20,056 nt of DNA from an uncultured Planctomycetia bacterium (GTDB lineage Bacteria > Omnitrophota > Gorgyraeia > Duberdicusellales > 4484-171), in the NCBI GenBank assembly GCA_964536865.1, contig CAZHYN010000018.1, positions 1 through 20,056 of the forward strand. Reading direction: 5' to 3'. The translations under genes and the position numbers were made by a program. The notes under the pieces were generated by a model. That model was not told the DNA's origin. It saw only the letters and a list, made by a program, of their open reading frames with translations, and ran no database searches. Below are positions 1 through 16,284 of the stretch, piece after piece. Within the stretch, counting starts at the first letter, position 1. Every line of letters starts with the position of its first letter.

Positions 1-33
1 ATGATAGTAGATATTAAATTGTTAAACTATTTT

Positions 34-77
34 GGACCCAACAAAAAAAGACTCCGACTTTGTCGGAGGTTGGGTTC
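34..77. repeat. Structured repeat unit U1 (compound stem-loop)
   Basis: 34-77 is identical to 164-207 except loop base 61 (T) versus 191 (C). Fold: outer stem GGACCCAAC (34-42) / GTTGGGTTC (69-77, one G-T pair), unpaired AAAAAAAGA (43-51), inner hairpin CTCCGAC (52-58) TTT GTCGGAG (62-68) abutting the outer 3' strand. On the minus strand the inner hairpin is followed by TCTTTTTTTG, which looks like an intrinsic terminator. Alternative closing pair: GGACCC 34-39 / GGGTCC 88-93. Confidence 0.8.
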
Positions 78-163
78 GAGTCTTAGCGGGTCCAGATATC
101 TTTGATAATTAAGATAAATCTAGTCAATTTTAACTTGCTCTTTATCAAAGATAAAGCAATCTC

Positions 164-232
164 GGACCCAACAAAAAAAGACTCCGACTTCGTCGGAGGT
201 TGGGTTCAAATCCCTCCCCCCTCCGTATGTTT
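164..232. repeat. Structured repeat unit U2 (compound stem-loop plus 26-nt C-rich box)
   Basis: Outer stem 164-172 / 199-207, bulge AAAAAAAGA 173-181, inner hairpin CTCCGAC 182-188, loop TTC, GTCGGAG 192-198. It is followed by CAAATCCCTCCCCCCTCCGTATGTTT (207-232), which recurs exactly at 336-361. Alternative pairing: CGGAGG 194-199 with CCTCCG 220-225. Confidence 0.8.
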
Positions 233-292
233 ATATATTGGAAAGAGAAGAGTCTTATAGAGAGAGGAGATGATTTATCTGGTAGCAATTTT

Positions 293-361
293 GGATGCGT
301 TATAAAAACTTCGCTTTATCAGCGAAGAACGCATACAAATCCCTCCCCCCTCCGTATGTTT
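293..361. repeat. Structured repeat unit U3 (same fold, both stems replaced, plus 26-nt C-rich box)
   Basis: Starts with GGA like U1/U2. Outer stem ATGCGTT 295-301 / AACGCAT 328-334, bulge ATAAAAA 302-308, inner hairpin CTTCGCT 309-315, loop TTATC, AGCGAAG 321-327 flush with the outer 3' strand. The distance from the leading GGA to the CAAATCCC box is 43 nt in both U2 (164 to 207) and U3 (293 to 336). Box 336-361 is identical to 207-232. Confidence 0.75.
302..327 (-). terminator. Candidate intrinsic terminator for the permease gene (inner hairpin of U3 read on minus strand)
   Basis: On the minus strand, CTTCGCT-GATAA-AGCGAAG (7-bp stem) is followed immediately by TTTTTAT. It is the first such structure, about 90 nt downstream of the permease stop (418). 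U2 (173-198) and U1 (43-68) give two more hairpin + T7 structures further downstream on the same strand. Confidence 0.5.
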
Positions 362-417
362 TTTCATTTTTAAATGAAATAAAAATTCTTACTCGACTGC
401 GATTACTTTTCCCACTA

Positions 418-1725
418 TCAAGTAAGAAAGATATATCTGAGGATAAAAAGGATAGAGAAGATATAGATTAAAGGAGGGACTTCTTTGATTTTCCCTGCTA
501 CTAACTTTAAGAAAGTGTAAGCTATAAAACCAAATGATATCCCTTCGGTAATACTAAAAGTTAGAGGCATAATTATTATAGTAAGAAATGCAGGAAAGCT
601 TTCGGTAAAATTATCCCAATCAATCTTTCTTATATTCTTAAGCATAAATGAGCCTACAACGATTAAAGCAGGAGCAATGATAGGATAAGTAACCAGCTTT
701 CCTACTTTAATAGGTTTAGAGACTACTTCTATTAAGGGATAGAATACCAAAGATAGAAGGAATAAAGAAGCAGTTACCAGATTAGCCAATCCTGTTCTTG
801 CTCCTTCAGCAATTCCTGTAGAACTTTCAACGTAGCTAGTAATAGTAGAAGTTCCTAGCAGGGTTCCCGAGACTGTACCTATAGCATCACTAAGTAACGC
901 TCCTTTAGCCCGAGGCAACTTACCTTCCTTTAAGAAACCAGCTTGCTCTCCTAATCCTACGAGGGTGCCTACCGTATCGAATAAGTCTAAGAAGAAGAAG
1001 ATAAATATTACTCCTAACATATTCCAAGTCAATGCACCTCTAATATCTAATTTGAAAAAGGTGGGGGAGAGAGAAGGAATTTTCCCTACTATTTTAGGAG
1101 ATTCTACCAGCCCCATACTCACGGCAAGAAAAATATTGAGTACTATTCCTATAAGAATTGCTCCTTTTACTTTTTTGGTAAGAAGTAAGGCAATCACTGT
1201 TACTCCTGATATGGAGAGTAAGACAGGGGGGGAGGAAAGTTTTCCCAGACCTATTAATGTTCCTGATTTTCCCACCACAATTCCTGCCCACTGCAGCCCA
1301 ATAAAGGTAATGAGAAGCCCTATTCCTACCGCAATTCCATGTTTTAAGGAAGAAGGGATAGCGTTGACCAGTTTTTCTCTTAACCCCCAAAAGGAAACTA
1401 TCAAAAAAAATATCCCTGCAATAAAATTTGCTCCTAAAGCTACTTGCCAGCTTACCCCTAAAGCAAGACATACCCCGTATACAAAGTAGAAATTATGTCC
1501 CATTGCTGGAGCTAAGGCTATGGGATAGTTAGCTAAGAGGGCCATAAAGATCATAGCAATACTTGAAGCTACACAGGTTGCTACCATTACTGCTCCTTTA
1601 TCCATTCCCACAGTAGAGAGGATGAGAGGTTGGACAAAGATGATATAAGACATTGTAACAAAGGTAGTAATACCTCCTATTATTTCTTGTCTTATAGAGG
1701 TTTTCTGTGATAGAAAATTTATCAT
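418..1725 (-). CDS. NCS2-family purine (adenine/guanine/hypoxanthine) permease, AzgA/PbuG-like
   Basis: A 435-aa polytopic membrane ORF. The N-terminal IRQEIIGGITTFVTMSYIIFVQPLIL and ANYPIALAPAMGHNFYF match the remembered COG2252 signature. The overlapping ORFs 965-1489(+) and 1094-1471(-) are shadows. Confidence 0.85.
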   Translation of the reverse strand: MINFLSQKTSIRQEIIGGITTFVTMSYIIFVQPLILSTVGMDKGAVMVATCVASSIAMIFMALLANYPIALAPAMGHNFYFVYGVCLALGVSWQVALGANFIAGIFFLIVSFWGLREKLVNAIPSSLKHGIAVGIGLLITFIGLQWAGIVVGKSGTLIGLGKLSSPPVLLSISGVTVIALLLTKKVKGAILIGIVLNIFLAVSMGLVESPKIVGKIPSLSPTFFKLDIRGALTWNMLGVIFIFFFLDLFDTVGTLVGLGEQAGFLKEGKLPRAKGALLSDAIGTVSGTLLGTSTITSYVESSTGIAEGARTGLANLVTASLFLLSLVFYPLIEVVSKPIKVGKLVTYPIIAPALIVVGSFMLKNIRKIDWDNFTESFPAFLTIIIMPLTFSITEGISFGFIAYTFLKLVAGKIKEVPPLIYIFSILFILRYIFLT

Positions 1726-1739
1726 TTCTCTTTAATAAA

Positions 1740-1768
1740 ATTCTATCAACTTTGAGAAGATTTTGCAA
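1740..1768 (-). promoter_or_regulatory. Sigma70-like promoter candidate for the permease
   Basis: The minus strand reads TTGCAA (1768-1763), 17-nt spacer, TAGAAT (1745-1740). The leader to ATG 1725 would be very short, which lowers confidence. Confidence 0.35.
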
Positions 1769-1797
1769 ATAGAAGAATGAAAACGTGAGGTTTTTTC

Positions 1798-1826
1798 TTG
1801 TAAGAGAAGAATAGATGTGTTAGAAT
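1798..1826 (+). promoter_or_regulatory. Sigma70-like promoter candidate for tadA
   Basis: TTGTAA (1798-1803), 17-nt spacer, TAGAAT (1821-1826), about 50 nt upstream of ATG 1876. Confidence 0.45.
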
Positions 1827-1875
1827 TCTTTAGCTATTAGATTGTCTTTCAATTTAAGGTTCACTCCATAATTTT

Positions 1876-2355
1876 ATGAGAAATATTCACTCCAAATTCA
1901 TGCGAGAGGCACTAAAACAGGCAAAGATAGGTTCCGATAATGGCGAAATTCCTATAGGAGCGGTTATTGTATATCAAAATAAAATCATTGCTAAGAGCCA
2001 TAATCAGGTAGAATTACTTAAAGACCCTACTGCTCACGCTGAGATTCTTGCTATTACGCAAGCTACCAACTATTTAAGATGTAAATGGTTGAAGGAATGC
2101 ACTCTCTATGTAACGGTAGAACCATGCCTTATGTGTGCTGCGGCTTTAGTCTTTTCTCGGATTGGTAGAGTTATTTTTGGAGCTTACGATTCTAAAGGAG
2201 GAGGAGTTATTTCCAAAGTAGATATTAATAGACTAAAATTGAATTATAAGATAAAATTTAAAGGGGGTATTTTAGAAGAAGAGTGTGCTAAGGTTATAAA
2301 GGATTTTTTTCAGAAAAAAAGAGAGTTAGTTAAAACTTCTAATAAAAAGATGTAG
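1876..2355 (+). CDS. tadA: tRNA-specific adenosine-34 deaminase
   Basis: 159 aa. Zinc-deaminase motifs HAE (TAHAEILAI) and PCxxC (VEPCLMCAAAL). Size and N-terminus (FMREALKQA) are typical of TadA. Confidence 0.9.
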   Translation: MRNIHSKFMREALKQAKIGSDNGEIPIGAVIVYQNKIIAKSHNQVELLKDPTAHAEILAITQATNYLRCKWLKECTLYVTVEPCLMCAAALVFSRIGRVIFGAYDSKGGGVISKVDINRLKLNYKIKFKGGILEEECAKVIKDFFQKKRELVKTSNKKM

Positions 2356-2395
2356 CCGAGTTATTTTTTCCTAAGGTGGATCCGCCTCTGGCGGA

Positions 2396-2413
2396 AAGGC
2401 AGCCGCCTGCTAA
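2396..2413 (+). repeat. 18-nt exact duplicate of an internal tRNA-Ser segment (D-stem 3' strand to end of anticodon loop)
   Basis: AAGGCAGCCGCCTGCTAA at 2396-2413 equals 2485-2502 inside the tRNA. GCCGAG at 2355-2360 also matches tRNA 2472-2477. Together they resemble a 5' half of the tRNA with the D-loop replaced by 35 nt. Confidence 0.8.
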
Positions 2414-2462
2414 AAGTTTTTAAAAAGCTTTTTGAAAAATAGAGAGGAGTTAAGGCTATTTT

Positions 2463-2557
2463 GGAGAGGTGGCCGAGCTGGTTTAAGGCAGCCGCCTGCT
2501 AAGCGGTTAGCCCGCCAAAAAGCGGGCTCCCGGGTTCGAATCCCGGCCTCTCCGCCA
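2463..2557 (+). tRNA. tRNA-Ser (anticodon GCT), type II with long variable arm, CCA encoded
   Basis: Acceptor GGAGAGG 2463-2469 / CCTCTCC 2547-2553. Anticodon stem 2491-2495 / 2503-2507 with loop CTGCTAA (anticodon 2498-2500). Variable arm AGCCCGC-CAAAAA-GCGGGCT (2509-2528). T arm CCGGG-TTCGAAT-CCCGG (2530-2546). Discriminator G2554, then CCA 2555-2557. Confidence 0.95.
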
Positions 2558-2587
2558 TTAGCTTATATGTTGTTCTCTTTAAATTTA

Positions 2588-2641
2588 CCCCCAACCACAG
2601 AAAGTCACCCCGCCCTTTCAAGGAAAGGGCGGGTTTCGGGG
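2588..2641. repeat. Structured repeat unit U5 (looser member of the same fold)
   Basis: Outer pairing CCCC(C)AA 2588-2594 with TT(C)GGGG 2635-2641 (one C-C mismatch). 5' bulge CCACAGAAAGTCAC (2595-2608). Inner 11-bp hairpin CCCGCCCTTTC 2609-2619, loop AAG, GAAAGGGCGGG 2623-2633. The 5' flank CCCAAC.A.A.AAAG resembles U1/U2. Confidence 0.5.
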
Positions 2642-2646
2642 TTTAC
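2609..2646 (+). terminator. Candidate intrinsic terminator after tRNA-Ser
   Basis: An 11-bp GC-rich hairpin (2609-2633) followed by TTTCGGGGTTT. The T-tract is interrupted, so this is a moderate call. Confidence 0.5.
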
Positions 2647-2677
2647 TAAAGTTAATTTTAAAGAAAAGGCAGTTTCG

Positions 2678-2740
2678 GGCCTAACAATGAAAGTCCCGAG
2701 CTTATCGGGGTTGGGTTTAAATCCTGTCTCTTCCTCATAA
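2678..2740. repeat. Structured repeat unit U4 (same fold, pyrimidine-rich tail)
   Basis: Outer stem CCTAAC 2680-2685 / GTTGGG 2710-2715 (the C-to-T change keeps a T-G pair). 9-nt bulge AATGAAAGT 2686-2694, the same length as in U1/U2. Inner hairpin CCCGA 2695-2699, loop GCTTA, TCGGG 2705-2709, flush with the outer 3' strand. Then GGTTGGGTTTAAATCC (15/16 identical to U2 198-213) and a C/T-rich tail ending 2 nt before the EamA ORF. Confidence 0.7.
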
Positions 2741-2742
2741 AT

Positions 2743-3177
2743 TTGAGTGAGAATGTTATGTTTGCTTATCTCTTTATAGTAATGACTGTATTTTTTTGGG
2801 GGTTAGCTACTATTTTTGATAAGCTCGCTCTAAGAGATGCTTCTCCTTTTGGTGGTCTTTTAATAAGAACGTTGGTTGTAGTTTTGGGGTTAATTTTAAT
2901 ATTTCCTTTCTTTAAATATAAATATCCTTCCTCTTTAAAGCTCAATTCTTCTTCACTTTTATTTTTTATTCTTTCAGGAGTATGTGCAGGATTATTGGGG
3001 ATGTTCACTTATTATTCAGCGTTAAAAAGACTTCCTGCCTCGATAGTAGTTCCTCTATGTTCGGTTTATCCTTTAATCTCAGCCCTTTTAGCAACAGCAG
3101 TTCTAAAAGAAGAGCTTAACATTTTAAGACTTACAGGAGTAGTTTTAATTATATTGGGGGTATGGCTGGTGAAGTAA
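2743..3177 (+). CDS. EamA/DMT-superfamily single-domain membrane transporter
   Basis: A 144-aa ORF with about 4-5 hydrophobic helices, matching an EamA-like half-size protein. The start is ambiguous: TTG 2743 or in-frame ATG 2758 (MFAYLF...), which I consider more likely. Confidence 0.6.
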   Translation: MSENVMFAYLFIVMTVFFWGLATIFDKLALRDASPFGGLLIRTLVVVLGLILIFPFFKYKYPSSLKLNSSSLLFFILSGVCAGLLGMFTYYSALKRLPASIVVPLCSVYPLISALLATAVLKEELNILRLTGVVLIILGVWLVK

Positions 3178-3196
3178 ATTTAGGAGAGAATTAGGA

Positions 3197-4150
3197 GTGG
3201 GAAGAGAACTTTTTTTACTTGTTTTAGGCCTTTTTCTTCTGATTATCAGTTCCCAATGGCTCATTCGGAGCTCTGTTAAATTAGCTACTCTTCTCAGAGT
3301 CACTCCTCTATTTATAGGAATGGTGATAGTTGCTTTCGGTACCAGTACTCCTGAAGCAGGAGTAGGAATTGTTGCAGCACTCAAGGGAGAGAAGGCTATC
3401 GCCTTAGGAAATATTGTGGGTAGTAATATTGCCAACATCGGGTTAATTTTGGGATTAGCTTCACTACTCAGGCCTTTAGGAGTGAAAAAAAGTGTCTTTA
3501 AGAGAGAACTTCCTATAATGCTAATTTGTACCTTTCTTCTGTATATCCTGAGTTTAGATCTCCTCATCAGTCGTGTAGATGGATTAATCTTTCTTGGGCT
3601 TTTTGTCTTTTTCTTTCTCATTTCCTACAGAGGAGGAAAAAAAGATTATAATTTTAAAGAATTGCAAAGTTTCCCTCTTTACAGTTTTCTAAAGAACACA
3701 ACTTCTCTTCTAGTTGTAGGAAGTGTGTGTAGCCTTTCTCTGGTAGGAGTGGTAGTAGGTGCAAACTTAATGGTAAAGGGAGGAGTGGGGTTAGCAAAGG
3801 CTTTTGGAGTAAGTTCCTGGATTATTGCTATTACTGTATTTGCGGTAGGTACTTCTCTCCCTGAGTTAGCAGCTTCTTTAGCAGCTTCTTTTAAAAGAAT
3901 ACCTTCTATCAGTATGGGGAATATTATAGGGAGTAATATCTTCAATATTCTCTTTATATTAGGTATCGTTGCTCTCATAAGACCTATAAAGATTGAACAA
4001 AGTTATCTTGGATTCGAATATATTTTTCTTATCTTCATTAGCATACTCTTAGCAGTATTTATGAAGACTGAGTATAAAGTTTCTCGCTGGGAGGGGTCTC
4101 TTTTGTTTCTGCTGTATATTCTCTTTGTATGGTTGATTGTAGGAAGGTAA
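3197..4150 (+). CDS. Ca2+/Na+ (CaCA family, YrbG-type) antiporter
   Basis: 317 aa, polytopic. Two alpha-repeat signatures, GTSTPE and GTSLPE. GTG start with AGGAGAG 8 nt upstream. Confidence 0.85.
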   Translation: MGRELFLLVLGLFLLIISSQWLIRSSVKLATLLRVTPLFIGMVIVAFGTSTPEAGVGIVAALKGEKAIALGNIVGSNIANIGLILGLASLLRPLGVKKSVFKRELPIMLICTFLLYILSLDLLISRVDGLIFLGLFVFFFLISYRGGKKDYNFKELQSFPLYSFLKNTTSLLVVGSVCSLSLVGVVVGANLMVKGGVGLAKAFGVSSWIIAITVFAVGTSLPELAASLAASFKRIPSISMGNIIGSNIFNILFILGIVALIRPIKIEQSYLGFEYIFLIFISILLAVFMKTEYKVSRWEGSLLFLLYILFVWLIVGR

Positions 4151-14202: not shown

Positions 14203-16284
14203 ATGATAAGAGAAGTTATCAAGAGAGATAAGAGAAAAGAGACTTTTGATTGGGAAAGAATTTACCAGGCTATTCTGAAAGCAGCAAAAGAGATTTACTC
14301 TTTAGGCGAGGCACAGAATTTAGCAAAGAGAACATTTGAGTTAGTAAAAGTCAGACTCTCCCGGTTCAGGAAAATATCTATTGAGATAGAAAAAATTCAA
14401 GATATCGTTGAAGAGGCCCTTATGAAATTAGGTTACACTGAAGTAGCAAAAGCCTATATTCTTTACAGAAGATATCGTCAAGAGGTGAGATTAATCAAAA
14501 GTAAACTTGGCATAAAAGATGAGCTTAAGTTGTCTTTAAATGCTATAGAAGTTTTAAGGAACAGGTATCTATTGAGAGACCAAACTCAGAGGGTAATAGA
14601 GACTCCTAAACAATTATTTGAACGAGTAGCTAAGTTTGTAGCTAGCGCAGAAAGAAATTTCGATCCTAAAAAAGAAGAATTGATACAGGAAAAGTTTTAT
14701 AATACTATGGCCAGCTTAGAGTTCCTTCCCAATTCTCCTACTTTGATGAATGCAGGGACTGGCGTAGGCCAGCTTTCTGCTTGTTTTGTTCTACCTGTGG
14801 GTGATTCTATGGAGGAAATTTTCGATTCGTTAAAAGCAATGGGAATTATCCATAAGACAGGAGGAGGAACAGGTTTTGACTTCTCTTCTCTTAGGCCTCA
14901 AGGGGATTGCGTTTTCTCTACTAAAGGGAGGTCCTCTGGACCTGTATCTTTTATGAAAATATTCGATACCGCTACAGGAGTTATCGTTCAGGGAGGGAGA
15001 CGTAGAGGCGCTAACATGGCAGTTTTAAGAATAGATCATCCTGACATAGTGGAATTTGTAGAGGCAAAGTTAGACGGAGTATCCTTCTCTAATTTTAATC
15101 TTTCCTGCGGAGTTACTGATGAGTTTATGGATGCTTTAAGATACAATAAAAAATTTGAACTTATTAATCCCCGCACTAAAAAGTGTGTAAAAGAAATAAA
15201 AGCTAAGGAGCTTTTTTCTGCTATAACATTTTCTGCTTACAAGTGCGGAGATCCAGGCTTAGTATTTTTAGATACTATTAATAGAGTACATCCCTTAAAA
15301 ATGTTAGGAGAAATTAGAGCTACTAACCCTTGTGGAGAAGTCCCCCTCTTAAATTATGAGTCCTGCAACTTAGGGTCTATAAATCTCTCCAAATTTGTAA
15401 AAGATAAAAAGATGGATTGGACAAAACTTAGAGAGGTCATCCATTTAGGGATAAGATTTTTAGATAACGTAATTGAAGTCAACAATTACCCTCTTAAGGA
15501 GATTAGAGAGGTTACGATTAGAAATAGAAAAATTGGGCTGGGTGTAATGGGCTTTGCTGATGCTTTGGTAAAGCTTCGGATACCTTATGCTTCTAAAGAA
15601 GCAGTAGATTTTTCTGCTAGACTTATGAAGTTTATAAGAAATGCTTCTTTAGAGGCATCTTCCCAATTAGCTAGAGAAAGAGGGGTATTCTCTAATTGGA
15701 AGTTCTCTATCTACAGAAAGAAAAATTTAAGATTAAGAAATGCTACTTTAAATAGTATTGCTCCTACGGGTACAATCAGTATTATTGCTGGCTGTTCTTC
15801 AGGAATTGAGCCTCTATTTGCATTAAGCTTTGTAAGGAATGTATTAGGAGGAGCTAAGTTATTAGAAATTAATCCCTTAGTGGAAGAAGTAGCTAGAGAA
15901 GAGGGTATTTACTCTAAAGAGCTTATGTATCGCATTCAAGGATTAGCCAGTTTAAAAGAAGCAAAGGTTCCTCTTATTTTAAAGAGAATTTTTCTTACTA
16001 CTTTTGATATTTCTCCTTTAGACCACCTCAAAATTCAATCTGCCTTTCAGAAATTTGTAGATAATGCGGTTTCTAAAACAATAAACCTTCCCTCCCATGC
16101 TAGCCCCGAAGATATAAAAGCGATTTACCTTAAAGCCTACCAGTTTAGGTTAAAAGGTATTACAGTTTACCGTTACGGAAGTAGAAAGAACCAAGTGCTT
16201 ACTCTAAGTTCTCGAAGGGAGGAGCCTGTGGAGGTAGTTCAGGGGTATGCTGGGGGATGTTTCTCTCACATCTGTGGAGAGTAA
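14203..16284 (+). CDS. nrdJ: Adenosylcobalamin-dependent (class II) ribonucleotide reductase with N-terminal ATP-cone
   Basis: 693 aa. ATP-cone start ([16 protein letters not shown]), [18 protein letters not shown], active-site NPCGE, C-terminal Cys pair ([10 protein letters not shown]). Confidence 0.85.

Follow-up and report, generated by a model that had tools for sequence, protein, structure and literature searches.

What occupies the DNA between the tRNA-Ser(GCT) gene and the EamA-type transporter gene at this locus, and does it act at the level of DNA, as an RNA read from the plus strand, or as a terminator on the minus strand? The sequence-only reading of the window (the whole 20,056-nt stretch of DNA that was analysed, which forms the start of contig C18 in an assembly of 1.29 Mb, 35% GC, 22 contigs and 94% completeness) had placed two nested hairpins there, U4 and U5, in one fold family with the units U1–U3, and had argued for a plus-strand or DNA-level role of that family.

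The tRNA-Ser/EamA locus and its two palindromes

The features that bear on this question are given below, with their support in brackets.

26–360, plus strand: U1 (26–101), U2 (156–231) and U3 (285–360), the remaining members of the family in the window (87.6, 94.0 and 44.5 bits with covariance model R1)
2396–2413, plus strand: exact 18-nt duplicate of tRNA-Ser positions 23–40, located 5′ of the gene (sequence match)
2463–2557, plus strand: tRNA-Ser(GCT) gene with encoded CCA, the gene that owns the U4 cassette (ARAGORN; 57.4 bits with the Rfam tRNA model)
2584–2646, strand unassigned: U5, a copy of a palindromic (REP-like) repeat, inner stem 2609–2619/2623–2633 (genome copies, model R1)
2666–2672, plus strand: AAGGCAG in the 5′ flank of U4, which can pair with CUGUCUU at 2724–2730 (MFE folds)
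2674–2685, plus strand: 5′ strand of the U4 module, with the foot TTC at 2674–2676 followed by GGGCCTAAC at 2677–2685, which pairs with 2710–2718 (R1 and R2 alignments, family covariation)
2686–2694, plus strand: 9-nt bulge of U4, AATGAAAGT, at the position taken by hairpin P2 in relatives
2695–2709, plus strand: inner hairpin P3 of U4, CCCGA GCTTA TCGGG, flush with the 3′ strand of the outer stem
2710–2718, plus strand: 3′ strand of the U4 outer stem, GTTGGGTTT, its last three bases being the equivalents of T54-T55-C56 with C changed to T (alignments)
2719–2737, plus strand: decayed direct copy of the 3′ end of tRNA-Ser(GCT), AAATCCTGTCTCTTCCTCA against GAATCCCGGCCTCTCCGCCA (offset 180 nt; 12/18 identical in an ungapped block, a match that is weak alone)
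2758–3177, plus strand: gene for an EamA-type half-transporter, its ATG 20 nt past the tRNA-end copy (ORF list; weak NCBIfam EamA/DMT-type matches)

The gene upstream of tRNA-Ser(GCT) is tadA, and the tRNA-Ser(GCT)–EamA synteny is conserved in genome G028. At the other end of the family's range in the window, U1–U3 form a portion of an array that continues from a contig end carrying tRNA-Ser, with contig-end overlap with C11 and C17. ARAGORN and the Rfam model RF00005 called a cloverleaf only at tRNA-Ser 2463–2557 and at none of U1–U5.

Membership of U4 in the family was assessed with R1, which was built from nine canonical units on four contigs with U3, U4 and U5 left out. The model recovered U4 at 2669–2742 on the plus strand with 43.0 bits (E 5e-11 in the window, where the best unrelated match scored 17.5 bits; E 3.4e-9 in the whole genome), in line with its earlier placement alongside U1–U3. 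The single-sequence fold of U4 was not better than that of shuffled sequences (z −0.81), so that its membership follows from homology and shared architecture and not from stability. That architecture was found as first described, with an outer stem, a 9-nt bulge and a flush inner hairpin as in U1 and U2, and with GGTTGGGTTTAAATCC, 15/16 identical to U2, directly after the outer stem. The pyrimidine-rich tail noted in the same place was also present, but it proved to be a copy of the tRNA 3′ end from the T-loop onward, which had been overlooked.

Four of the 9 bp in the outer stem of U4 are G-T, and within the foot T2674–A2721 and T2675–A2720 pair while C2676 and A2719 do not (2/3, against 94/96 cells in the family). 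The weak match of its tail to tRNA-Ser(GCT) is explained by decay of the tail; the sister species carries C at the position of T2725, one step nearer to the tRNA. U4 starts 111 nt past tRNA-Ser(GCT) where the usual cassette distance is 54–67 nt, and the excess is due to the U5 insert. U4 is a genuine but ageing copy of a hairpin-cassette family.

The three occurrences of AAGGCAG reported at 2396, 2485 and 2666 were confirmed. Those at 2396 and 2485 are a consequence of the exact 18-nt duplicate of tRNA-Ser positions 23–40, and the helix between 2666–2672 and CUGUCUU appeared as an optional addition in the MFE folds of U4. Such an anti-tail helix, seen in the Pro cassette and in U4, was rejected as a general feature of the family: duplexes of the spacer end with its own tail and with other tails had energies of −6.4 and −5.6 kcal/mol, respectively (p 0.15).

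U5, taken at first for a looser copy of the same family, turned out to be something else. R1 gave no plus-strand match at U5, its minus-strand match there reached no more than 8.3 bits (E 5.3), and the GAAAGTC and GGGTTTA that U5 has in common with U4 are too little for a model match. A DNA search with positions 2578–2659 of the window returned many matches elsewhere in the genome, on both strands and at 84–97% identity, from which we delineated a repeat of ~75 nt with the consensus TTTACCCCGAACCAC-AGAAAGCCA-CCCCGCCCTTTC-loop-GAAAGGGCGGGG-TAAGCCC-GTGGTTCGGGGTTTAC. Copies in either orientation, complete or reduced to a core of 29 nt, were counted at 13 places in the genome and are 88–100% identical to the consensus. 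Many near-identical, palindromic, intergenic copies in both orientations are what characterizes REP-like elements, and U5 is one of these; it is unrelated to U1–U4, and its nested shape is only superficially similar to theirs. In the sister species G001 the U5 copy is longer and has an inverted loop, the copy in the window being shorter by roughly 12 nt through a deletion. The assignment of its inner hairpin as the likely terminator of tRNA-Ser appears doubtful, with the consensus scan silent at U5 and full-length repeats lacking a T-run after the hairpin. Elsewhere in the genome, the inner arms CCCCGCCCTTT and AAAGGGCGGGG of this repeat flank a GIY-YIG ORF that interrupts the 23S rRNA gene within its 3′ domain.

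A hairpin module beside many tRNA genes

Besides the serine array, R1 matched sites just 3′ of tRNA-Met, tRNA-Phe and tRNA-Trp, and each of these hairpins was followed by the 3′ end of its own tRNA and not by that of tRNA-Ser. A second model, R2, built from 11 diverse copies, found 25 copies in the genome at E < 1e-3. At least 15 tRNA genes have such modules beside them, about 25 copies in all, without specificity for serine: the same module is found after the Met, Phe, Trp, Pro, Asp, Gln, Leu and Arg tRNAs, accompanied in every case by a copy of the respective tRNA end. Across the whole genome, 13 of the 44 tRNA genes were found to have one to three duplicates of their own last 18 nt downstream, and none had them upstream. 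BLAST detected 27 tRNA-gene fragments outside intact genes, the majority of them 3′-end copies beginning at tRNA positions 51–59 or, for serine and leucine tRNAs of the long class II type, at 69. The enrichment 3′ of tRNA genes that had been predicted is therefore real and nearly exclusive. The shape of the motif is not that of the generic terminator of this organism.

From these copies we defined a cassette that consists of a ~60-nt spacer, whose length is kept while its sequence drifts, the hairpin module, and a direct repeat of the adjacent tRNA gene that extends from T-loop base C56 to the 3′ end of the gene. The duplicated block starts at C56, the TAC or TTC before it belonging to the module, and ends at the discriminator or CCA, at times 3–16 nt into the trailer; the period is 124–145 nt. 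Seen from the gene, the cassettes are direct repeats of the 3′ part of a tRNA that bound ~110-nt inserts without an ORF. The tails follow the gene and not the mature tRNA, CCA being present only where it is encoded. An origin of the tails as cDNA of mature tRNA was rejected, since gene trailers are copied and CCA is absent where the gene lacks it; simple tandem duplication of a T-loop-to-hairpin segment was rejected because both single cassettes and arrays finish with the tail and not with the hairpin. No remnant of a tRNA 5′ half was found in the spacers. The outer stems fall into three classes, GGAACAAAT/ATTTGTTWC, GGATGCxxT/..GCATAC and GGAYCCAAC/GTTGGRTWC, each common to unrelated tRNAs, and consequently the hairpin is not the remodelled body of the local tRNA. 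Integron attC-like cores (RYYYAAC/GTTRRRY) were considered and set aside, as they fit only the class of Ser, Phe#1 and U4 and none of the others.

Two features of the cassettes had escaped the sequence-only reading: the complementarity of the module 5′ foot to the T-loop, and the existence of mirror-image copies upstream of tRNA genes. We examined the first in 32 sequences from ~20 genera. In this set, whose alignment was fitted to the model and hence is biased towards the structure, and whose relatives are not independent, 94% of cells were paired, 14 of 16 pairs had changes on both sides (7/7 for P3 across the family), and none of 500 shuffles scored as high; with pairing partners shifted by 1–3 columns only 29–48% of cells were paired. 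One or two hairpins lie inside the outer stem, the final one always flush with its 3′ strand; most relatives have the second hairpin, P2, mostly with a CUUCGG loop, where the copies in the window have an A-rich bulge.

The foot provided an independent result, as its three pairs lie outside the model's structure. The three bases 5′ of an invariant GGA pair with T-loop bases 57–59 of the tail in 32/32, 32/32 and 30/32 sequences, and their identity follows the tRNA (TTT/AAA, GTC/GAC, CTC/GAG, ATC/GAT and GTT/AAC; pair counts CG 16, UA 15, UG 1, and UA 18, GC 6, AU 4, CG 2). The foot of the outer stem continues with an invariant G-C pair (with C56), then G.A or G.U, then A-U, so that pairing with the module 5′ foot takes in the first four bases of the tRNA copy. 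With the foot included, the outer stem amounts to 12 bp; the entire T-loop copy is sequestered in it, and the stem corresponds to the tRNA of the same locus.

The second feature emerged when R2 matched the opposite strand just 5′ of tRNA-Leu(GAG) and tRNA-Leu(CAG); similar modules stand 5′ of tRNA-Phe and tRNA-Leu(CAA). In this mirror-image form a copy of the tRNA 5′ end (up to position 13; in Phe, up to position 34) adjoins the TA|C end of the inverted module, the foot is once more complementary to the start of that copy, and a spacer of ~50–66 nt leads to the intact gene. In both forms the module lies towards the truncated copy and the spacer towards the intact gene. This two-sided symmetry is expected from insertion and duplication at the DNA level and is awkward for a purely RNA role in the trailer. 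It also qualifies the claim that all five copies in the window share one orientation. They do, and the reason is that all of them lie behind plus-strand tRNA genes or arrays, but mirror-image copies exist upstream of other tRNAs.

Spread, variation and constraint of the cassettes

Among relatives, R2 found the module in 18/24 genomes of the same family, 2/11 genomes of other families of the order and 0/5 genomes of the rest of the class, many of these genomes being incomplete. At 21 loci taken from relatives, a co-oriented tRNA gene was located upstream in 15 cases, mostly 54–60 nt away, and the tails matched this tRNA at 11–16 of 16 bases in 13 of the 15, the other 2 having no match. One more tail resembled the 3′ end of tmRNA, a gene to which the tRNA scan of those loci is blind. 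In another genus, a module of a different class lies 84 nt past tRNA-Ser(GCT) and carries a tail 18/20 identical to that tRNA. The spacers of different genera are unrelated except for their last 8–10 nt. Rfam searches at permissive thresholds in the window and in the relatives' loci returned tRNAs only and no family matching the cassettes, and a search of the literature found no description of them.

The presence and number of cassettes at individual loci differ between genomes. In G028, which belongs to another family, the orthologous site is empty, and tRNA-Ser(GCT) lies 12 nt from the EamA ATG; the gap of 12 nt is filled here by the U4 cassette and the unrelated U5 palindrome. Two further genomes have tRNA-Ser(GCT) followed by an antiporter gene with no element between. 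At tRNA-Pro(GGG), one unit is present here and two are present in the sister species.

Once in place, the modules appear to be constrained. Comparison of five orthologous cassettes, confined to the two sister species G000 and G001, showed changes at 2/189 stem positions, 11/74 positions in module loops, 33/322 in spacers, 20/135 in downstream DNA, 3/79 in tails and 4/250 in the tRNAs themselves (Fisher test for stems against spacers plus downstream DNA, p 1e-6). Both stem changes belong to a single compensatory pair at tRNA-Trp (GTC/GAC versus ATC/GAT), which indicates that pairing is maintained at each locus. U4 itself showed 0/28 changes in stems and 10/119 in its spacer. Self-correction of palindromes could be an alternative to selection as a cause of this conservation.

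The layout of an intact tRNA followed by an insert and a displaced 3′ tRNA fragment is that of tRNA-integrated islands (Islander database, PMC4383910), which raised the question of whether the units are neutral relics, either the attachment-site scars of deleted integrase-borne islands or decayed tandem copies of tRNA-Ser. In line with the latter, R1 weakly matched the 3′ two-thirds of tRNA-Ser(CGA) (25 bits) and tRNA-Ser(GGA) (21 bits). However, the same module stands beside many tRNAs, each with its own end copy, and the period is uniform, the structure covaries and the stems are constrained; the Rfam tRNA model and ARAGORN see nothing at U1, U2 and U4. A search of the genome for tyrosine recombinases with PF00589 gave two matches, both above the XerD/XerC equivalog cut-offs, so that XerC and XerD are the only such enzymes found in this 94%-complete genome. 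A neutral scar is therefore largely excluded, and we consider it very improbable.

The constraint on the stems also bears on the possibility that the module is a functional structure in plus-strand RNA, co-transcribed with the tRNA and marking where the tRNA precursor ends and the mRNA that follows it begins (that of EamA at this locus), with the DNA duplication only its origin. Such a structure could be a site of processing, could block exonucleases or could be a minihelix that imitates a tRNA. Stems conserved as well as tRNAs between the sister species while loops drift, with the compensatory change at tRNA-Trp, are consistent with such a structure, as are the CUUCGG loops on P2 in most P2-bearing relatives and the position of P3, flush with the 3′ strand like the T arm on the acceptor stem of a tRNA. 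In relatives G-U pairs outnumber A-C mismatches 15 to 3, a bias that shrinks to 6 to 3 without the G.A/G.U position and thus speaks less strongly for RNA, and the outer stem of U4 needs its four G-U pairs. Co-oriented genes begin 11–45 nt past the tail at several loci. Between tRNA-Ser and EamA no promoter-like site was found, which, together with the 12-nt distance between these genes in G028, makes their co-transcription likely and probably ancestral.

Other observations fit an RNA function less well. In the mirror-image upstream copies, the sense strand of the module is antisense to the tRNA. The tRNA-end copies decay in U4, in the tRNA-Trp cassette of G000 and inside arrays, so that the tail is dispensable, and the structure matches no Rfam family. 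On balance, we regard the plus-strand RNA as a possible but somewhat unlikely explanation of the cassettes as a whole.

A third reading treats the modules as inward-facing intrinsic terminators that shield the tRNA from outside transcription, acting on the minus strand in the case of U4. Like Rho-independent terminators, the cassettes have a GC-rich hairpin beside an A- or T-run: the A-rich bulge of the Ser, Met and Phe copies in this genome reads as a hairpin followed by a U-tract on the opposite strand, and the reverse complement of U4, with its hairpin followed by ACTTTCATTG, was called terminator-like by the consensus scan. In the mirror-image upstream copies, a hairpin followed by TATTTAATT faces the tRNA on its sense strand, and U3 follows the stop codon of a minus-strand permease gene. 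Unlike in such terminators, the U-tract is not conserved. It is missing from the Trp and Arg(TCT) copies, and in relatives hairpin P2 takes the place of the A-run. On the minus strand the four G-T pairs of U4 become A-C mismatches and its outer stem does not form, and no minus-strand gene lies downstream of U4 for ~17 kb. Moreover, termination would give no function to the 12-bp outer stem with its covariation, nor to the matched foot or the tRNA-end copy. The earlier objection that termination on the minus strand is insufficient by itself is borne out by these features, and we judge the terminator reading unlikely.

Proposed insertion into tRNA genes, and comparison with known systems

The reading that we favour, with a probability of about 0.5, is that of a cassette acting at the level of DNA, which targets the T|C step in the loops of tRNA genes, keeps the gene by duplicating its outer part, expands by unequal recombination and has the paired foot as its specificity determinant. 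The module would become joined to the T|C step in the loop of a tRNA gene, with the outer part of that gene duplicated and an intact tRNA remaining. Unequal recombination between the tRNA-end copies would then both make and shrink tandem arrays. By analogy with single-strand transposition of the IS200/IS605 type, the folded hairpin, which matches the target over 4 nt, may be the active part. After arrival the stems would stay constrained, probably because it matters how the plus-strand RNA folds in the trailer of the tRNA or the leader of EamA. A purely selfish mobile element would not be expected to have its stems under purifying selection at orthologous sites, and their constraint points to a function at the level of the host. 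Evidence exists for both a plus-strand RNA role and a DNA-level role of the cassettes, and the two readings are not exclusive.

For such insertion the genome offers, as the only candidate enzymes seen, small GIY-YIG nucleases and two Y1 ORFs that resemble REP transposases. The Y1 ORFs score below the NCBIfam cut-off (63 versus 80 bits) and adjoin no cassette; one GIY-YIG ORF lies between tRNA-Gln(CTG) and an end copy of the same tRNA. Searches of the genome found no reverse transcriptase, and the match to TnpB, at 19 bits, was below the cut-off. No insertion event was caught in progress and no enzyme was linked to the cassettes in these data. The DNA-cassette reading also leaves the copying of a new tRNA's end without an account, and the lack of conservation of the spacers between genera is odd for a part of a mobile unit.

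Several known systems share parts of this design. Islands and prophages that depend on tyrosine integrases likewise place inserted DNA after an intact tRNA, followed by a direct repeat of the 3′ part that begins in the T-loop, and can form tandem arrays; in phage Ms6 the crossover occurs in the tRNA T-loop (PMC1762012). The cassettes differ from these in having an insert of only ~110 nt without genes, in occupying at least 15 tRNAs and in having a junction hairpin base-paired to the target.

REP/REPIN-RAYT and IS200/IS605 systems resemble the cassettes in their short, protein-less hairpins and in a foot complementary to the junction, and RAYT-like Y1 ORFs are present in the genome. In IS608, the guide sequences are a few bases at the foot of a hairpin that are complementary to the junction sequence. 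In contrast to REPs, which are dispersed in both orientations and produce no target duplication, the U1–U4 family occurs only at tRNA and tmRNA genes and in a fixed orientation relative to the gene copy.

RtT RNA (RF00391) corresponds to the 178-bp repeats distal to E. coli tyrT, each of which has a copy of the tRNA 3′ end. As in the cassettes, the repeated units are non-coding, lie in the tRNA trailer, contain tRNA 3′-end copies and vary in number by tandem repetition. The cassettes, however, serve many tRNAs, have a covarying hairpin with a T-loop-paired foot and occur in mirror image upstream, and RF00391 had no match at E up to 10 in window positions 1–3200 or at E up to 1 in the loci of eight relatives.

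It may be, although we put this forward tentatively and think it rather unlikely in full, that the family represents an undescribed class of non-autonomous mobile elements that choose the loops of tRNA genes by foot pairing, restore the gene through duplication of its outer part and extend in other sequence guises to ultra-small bacteria and archaea, and/or a new structured RNA that acts as punctuation in co-transcripts of tRNA and mRNA. If mobile, the cassettes would target tRNA genes without an integrase, with a few base pairs setting the specificity and the target gene preserved, which would bear on programmable insertion and on how selfish DNA is tolerated by small genomes. As RNA elements, they would constitute an uncatalogued structured motif on at least a third of tRNA genes across a bacterial family, with stems conserved like tRNAs.

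The cassettes also affect the handling of genome sequences. As repeats they fragment assemblies at tRNA loci; cassette arrays contain four of the contig ends of this genome, and tRNA-Ser(TGA) was not assembled. In annotation, they can be mistaken for tRNA pseudogenes or terminators.

GIY-YIG ORFs at rRNA and tRNA genes

Small GIY-YIG ORFs were located at both rRNA and tRNA genes of this genome, including the following two loci.

Contig C5, ~15100-15300, minus strand (locus L051): small GIY-YIG ORF inserted within the 23S rRNA gene (3′ domain).
Contig C1, 120660-121064: tRNA-Gln(CTG), GIY-YIG ORF and copy of the tRNA 3′ end.

The ORF in the 23S rRNA gene is bracketed by the arms CCCCGCCCTTT and AAAGGGCGGGG, which are identical to the arms of the inner stem of U5, the window's copy of a REP-like palindromic repeat. 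On this evidence, the U5 repeats may be miniature versions of a GIY-YIG cassette. At the C1 locus, a complete GIY-YIG ORF of ~69 aa lies behind tRNA-Gln(CTG); after it come an exact 20-nt copy of the tRNA-Gln 3′ end and then a “23S rRNA intervening sequence protein”-type ORF (four-helix bundle). A further GIY-YIG ORF, at C2 12056-12256, has copies of one tRNA 5′ end on its flanks.

Partial and interrupted tRNA copies

The following loci hold partial or split tRNA sequences.

Contig C4, 43984-44090 (locus L050, 385-488): second tRNA-Ala(GGC) copy with a hairpin insert.
Window, 2353-2462: partial 5′ copy of tRNA-Ser(GCT), upstream of the tRNA-Ser(GCT) gene.
Contig C4, 81951-82775 (locus L049): tRNA-Arg-like 5′ part and matching tRNA 3′ end.

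In the tRNA-Ala(GGC) copy, a double hairpin of 31 nt, made up of TCCGCC-AGA-GGCGGA followed by CCCGCC-TTTA-GGCGGG, separates T55 from C56; the copy scored 49 bits with Rfam's tRNA model despite the insert, and a compensatory pair distinguishes its T stem from that of the intact gene. Between the two genes, ~170 nt upstream of the split copy, there is a D-loop fragment that has an insert of this kind as well. The partial tRNA-Ser copy likewise holds a hairpin, TCCGCC-TCT-GGCGGA, at window 2381-2395, and window positions 2396-2413 reproduce tRNA-Ser(GCT) positions 23-40 exactly over 18 nt. The anticodon-arm copy of this partial tRNA, together with AAAAGTTTTT, was called terminator-like on the plus strand, directly 3′ of the stop codon of tadA.

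At the tRNA-Arg-like locus, the first 38 nt (reading ...CCTTCT AA) are separated by ~760 nt from the matching 3′ end, and the locus may represent a tRNA-Arg(TCT) carrying a large insert or intron; a search with Rfam intron families at E up to 0.01 gave no match. A cassette of the U4 family, the hairpin modules beside tRNA genes, follows at C4 82837-82912.

Mismatched tails, decay and assembly breaks

In some cassettes the tail differs from the tRNA immediately upstream, being Ser-like after tRNA-Arg(TCT) and unassigned after tRNA-Lys(CTT) in two relatives (L037 of G009 and L041 of G015); a Ser-type unit sits behind tRNA-Lys(CTT) at C21 11617-11878 of the present genome. Such mismatches may have arisen by recombination between modules of different loci. 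One module has decayed beyond U4 and retains no recognisable tail.

Contig C17, 30394-30427, minus strand: decayed module behind tRNA-Arg(ACG).

Four contig ends fall within Ser-type cassette arrays.

Window, 1-60 (start of contig C18): contig end.
Contig C11, 47200-47247: contig end.
Contig C17, 32480-32533: contig end.
Contig C21, 11800-11878: contig end.

The assembly contains no tRNA-Ser(TGA), and this missing gene may be located in an unassembled array. The C11 end, which carries tRNA-Ser(GGA) and an array, overlaps both the start of the window and the reverse of the C17 end, forming an assembly fork.
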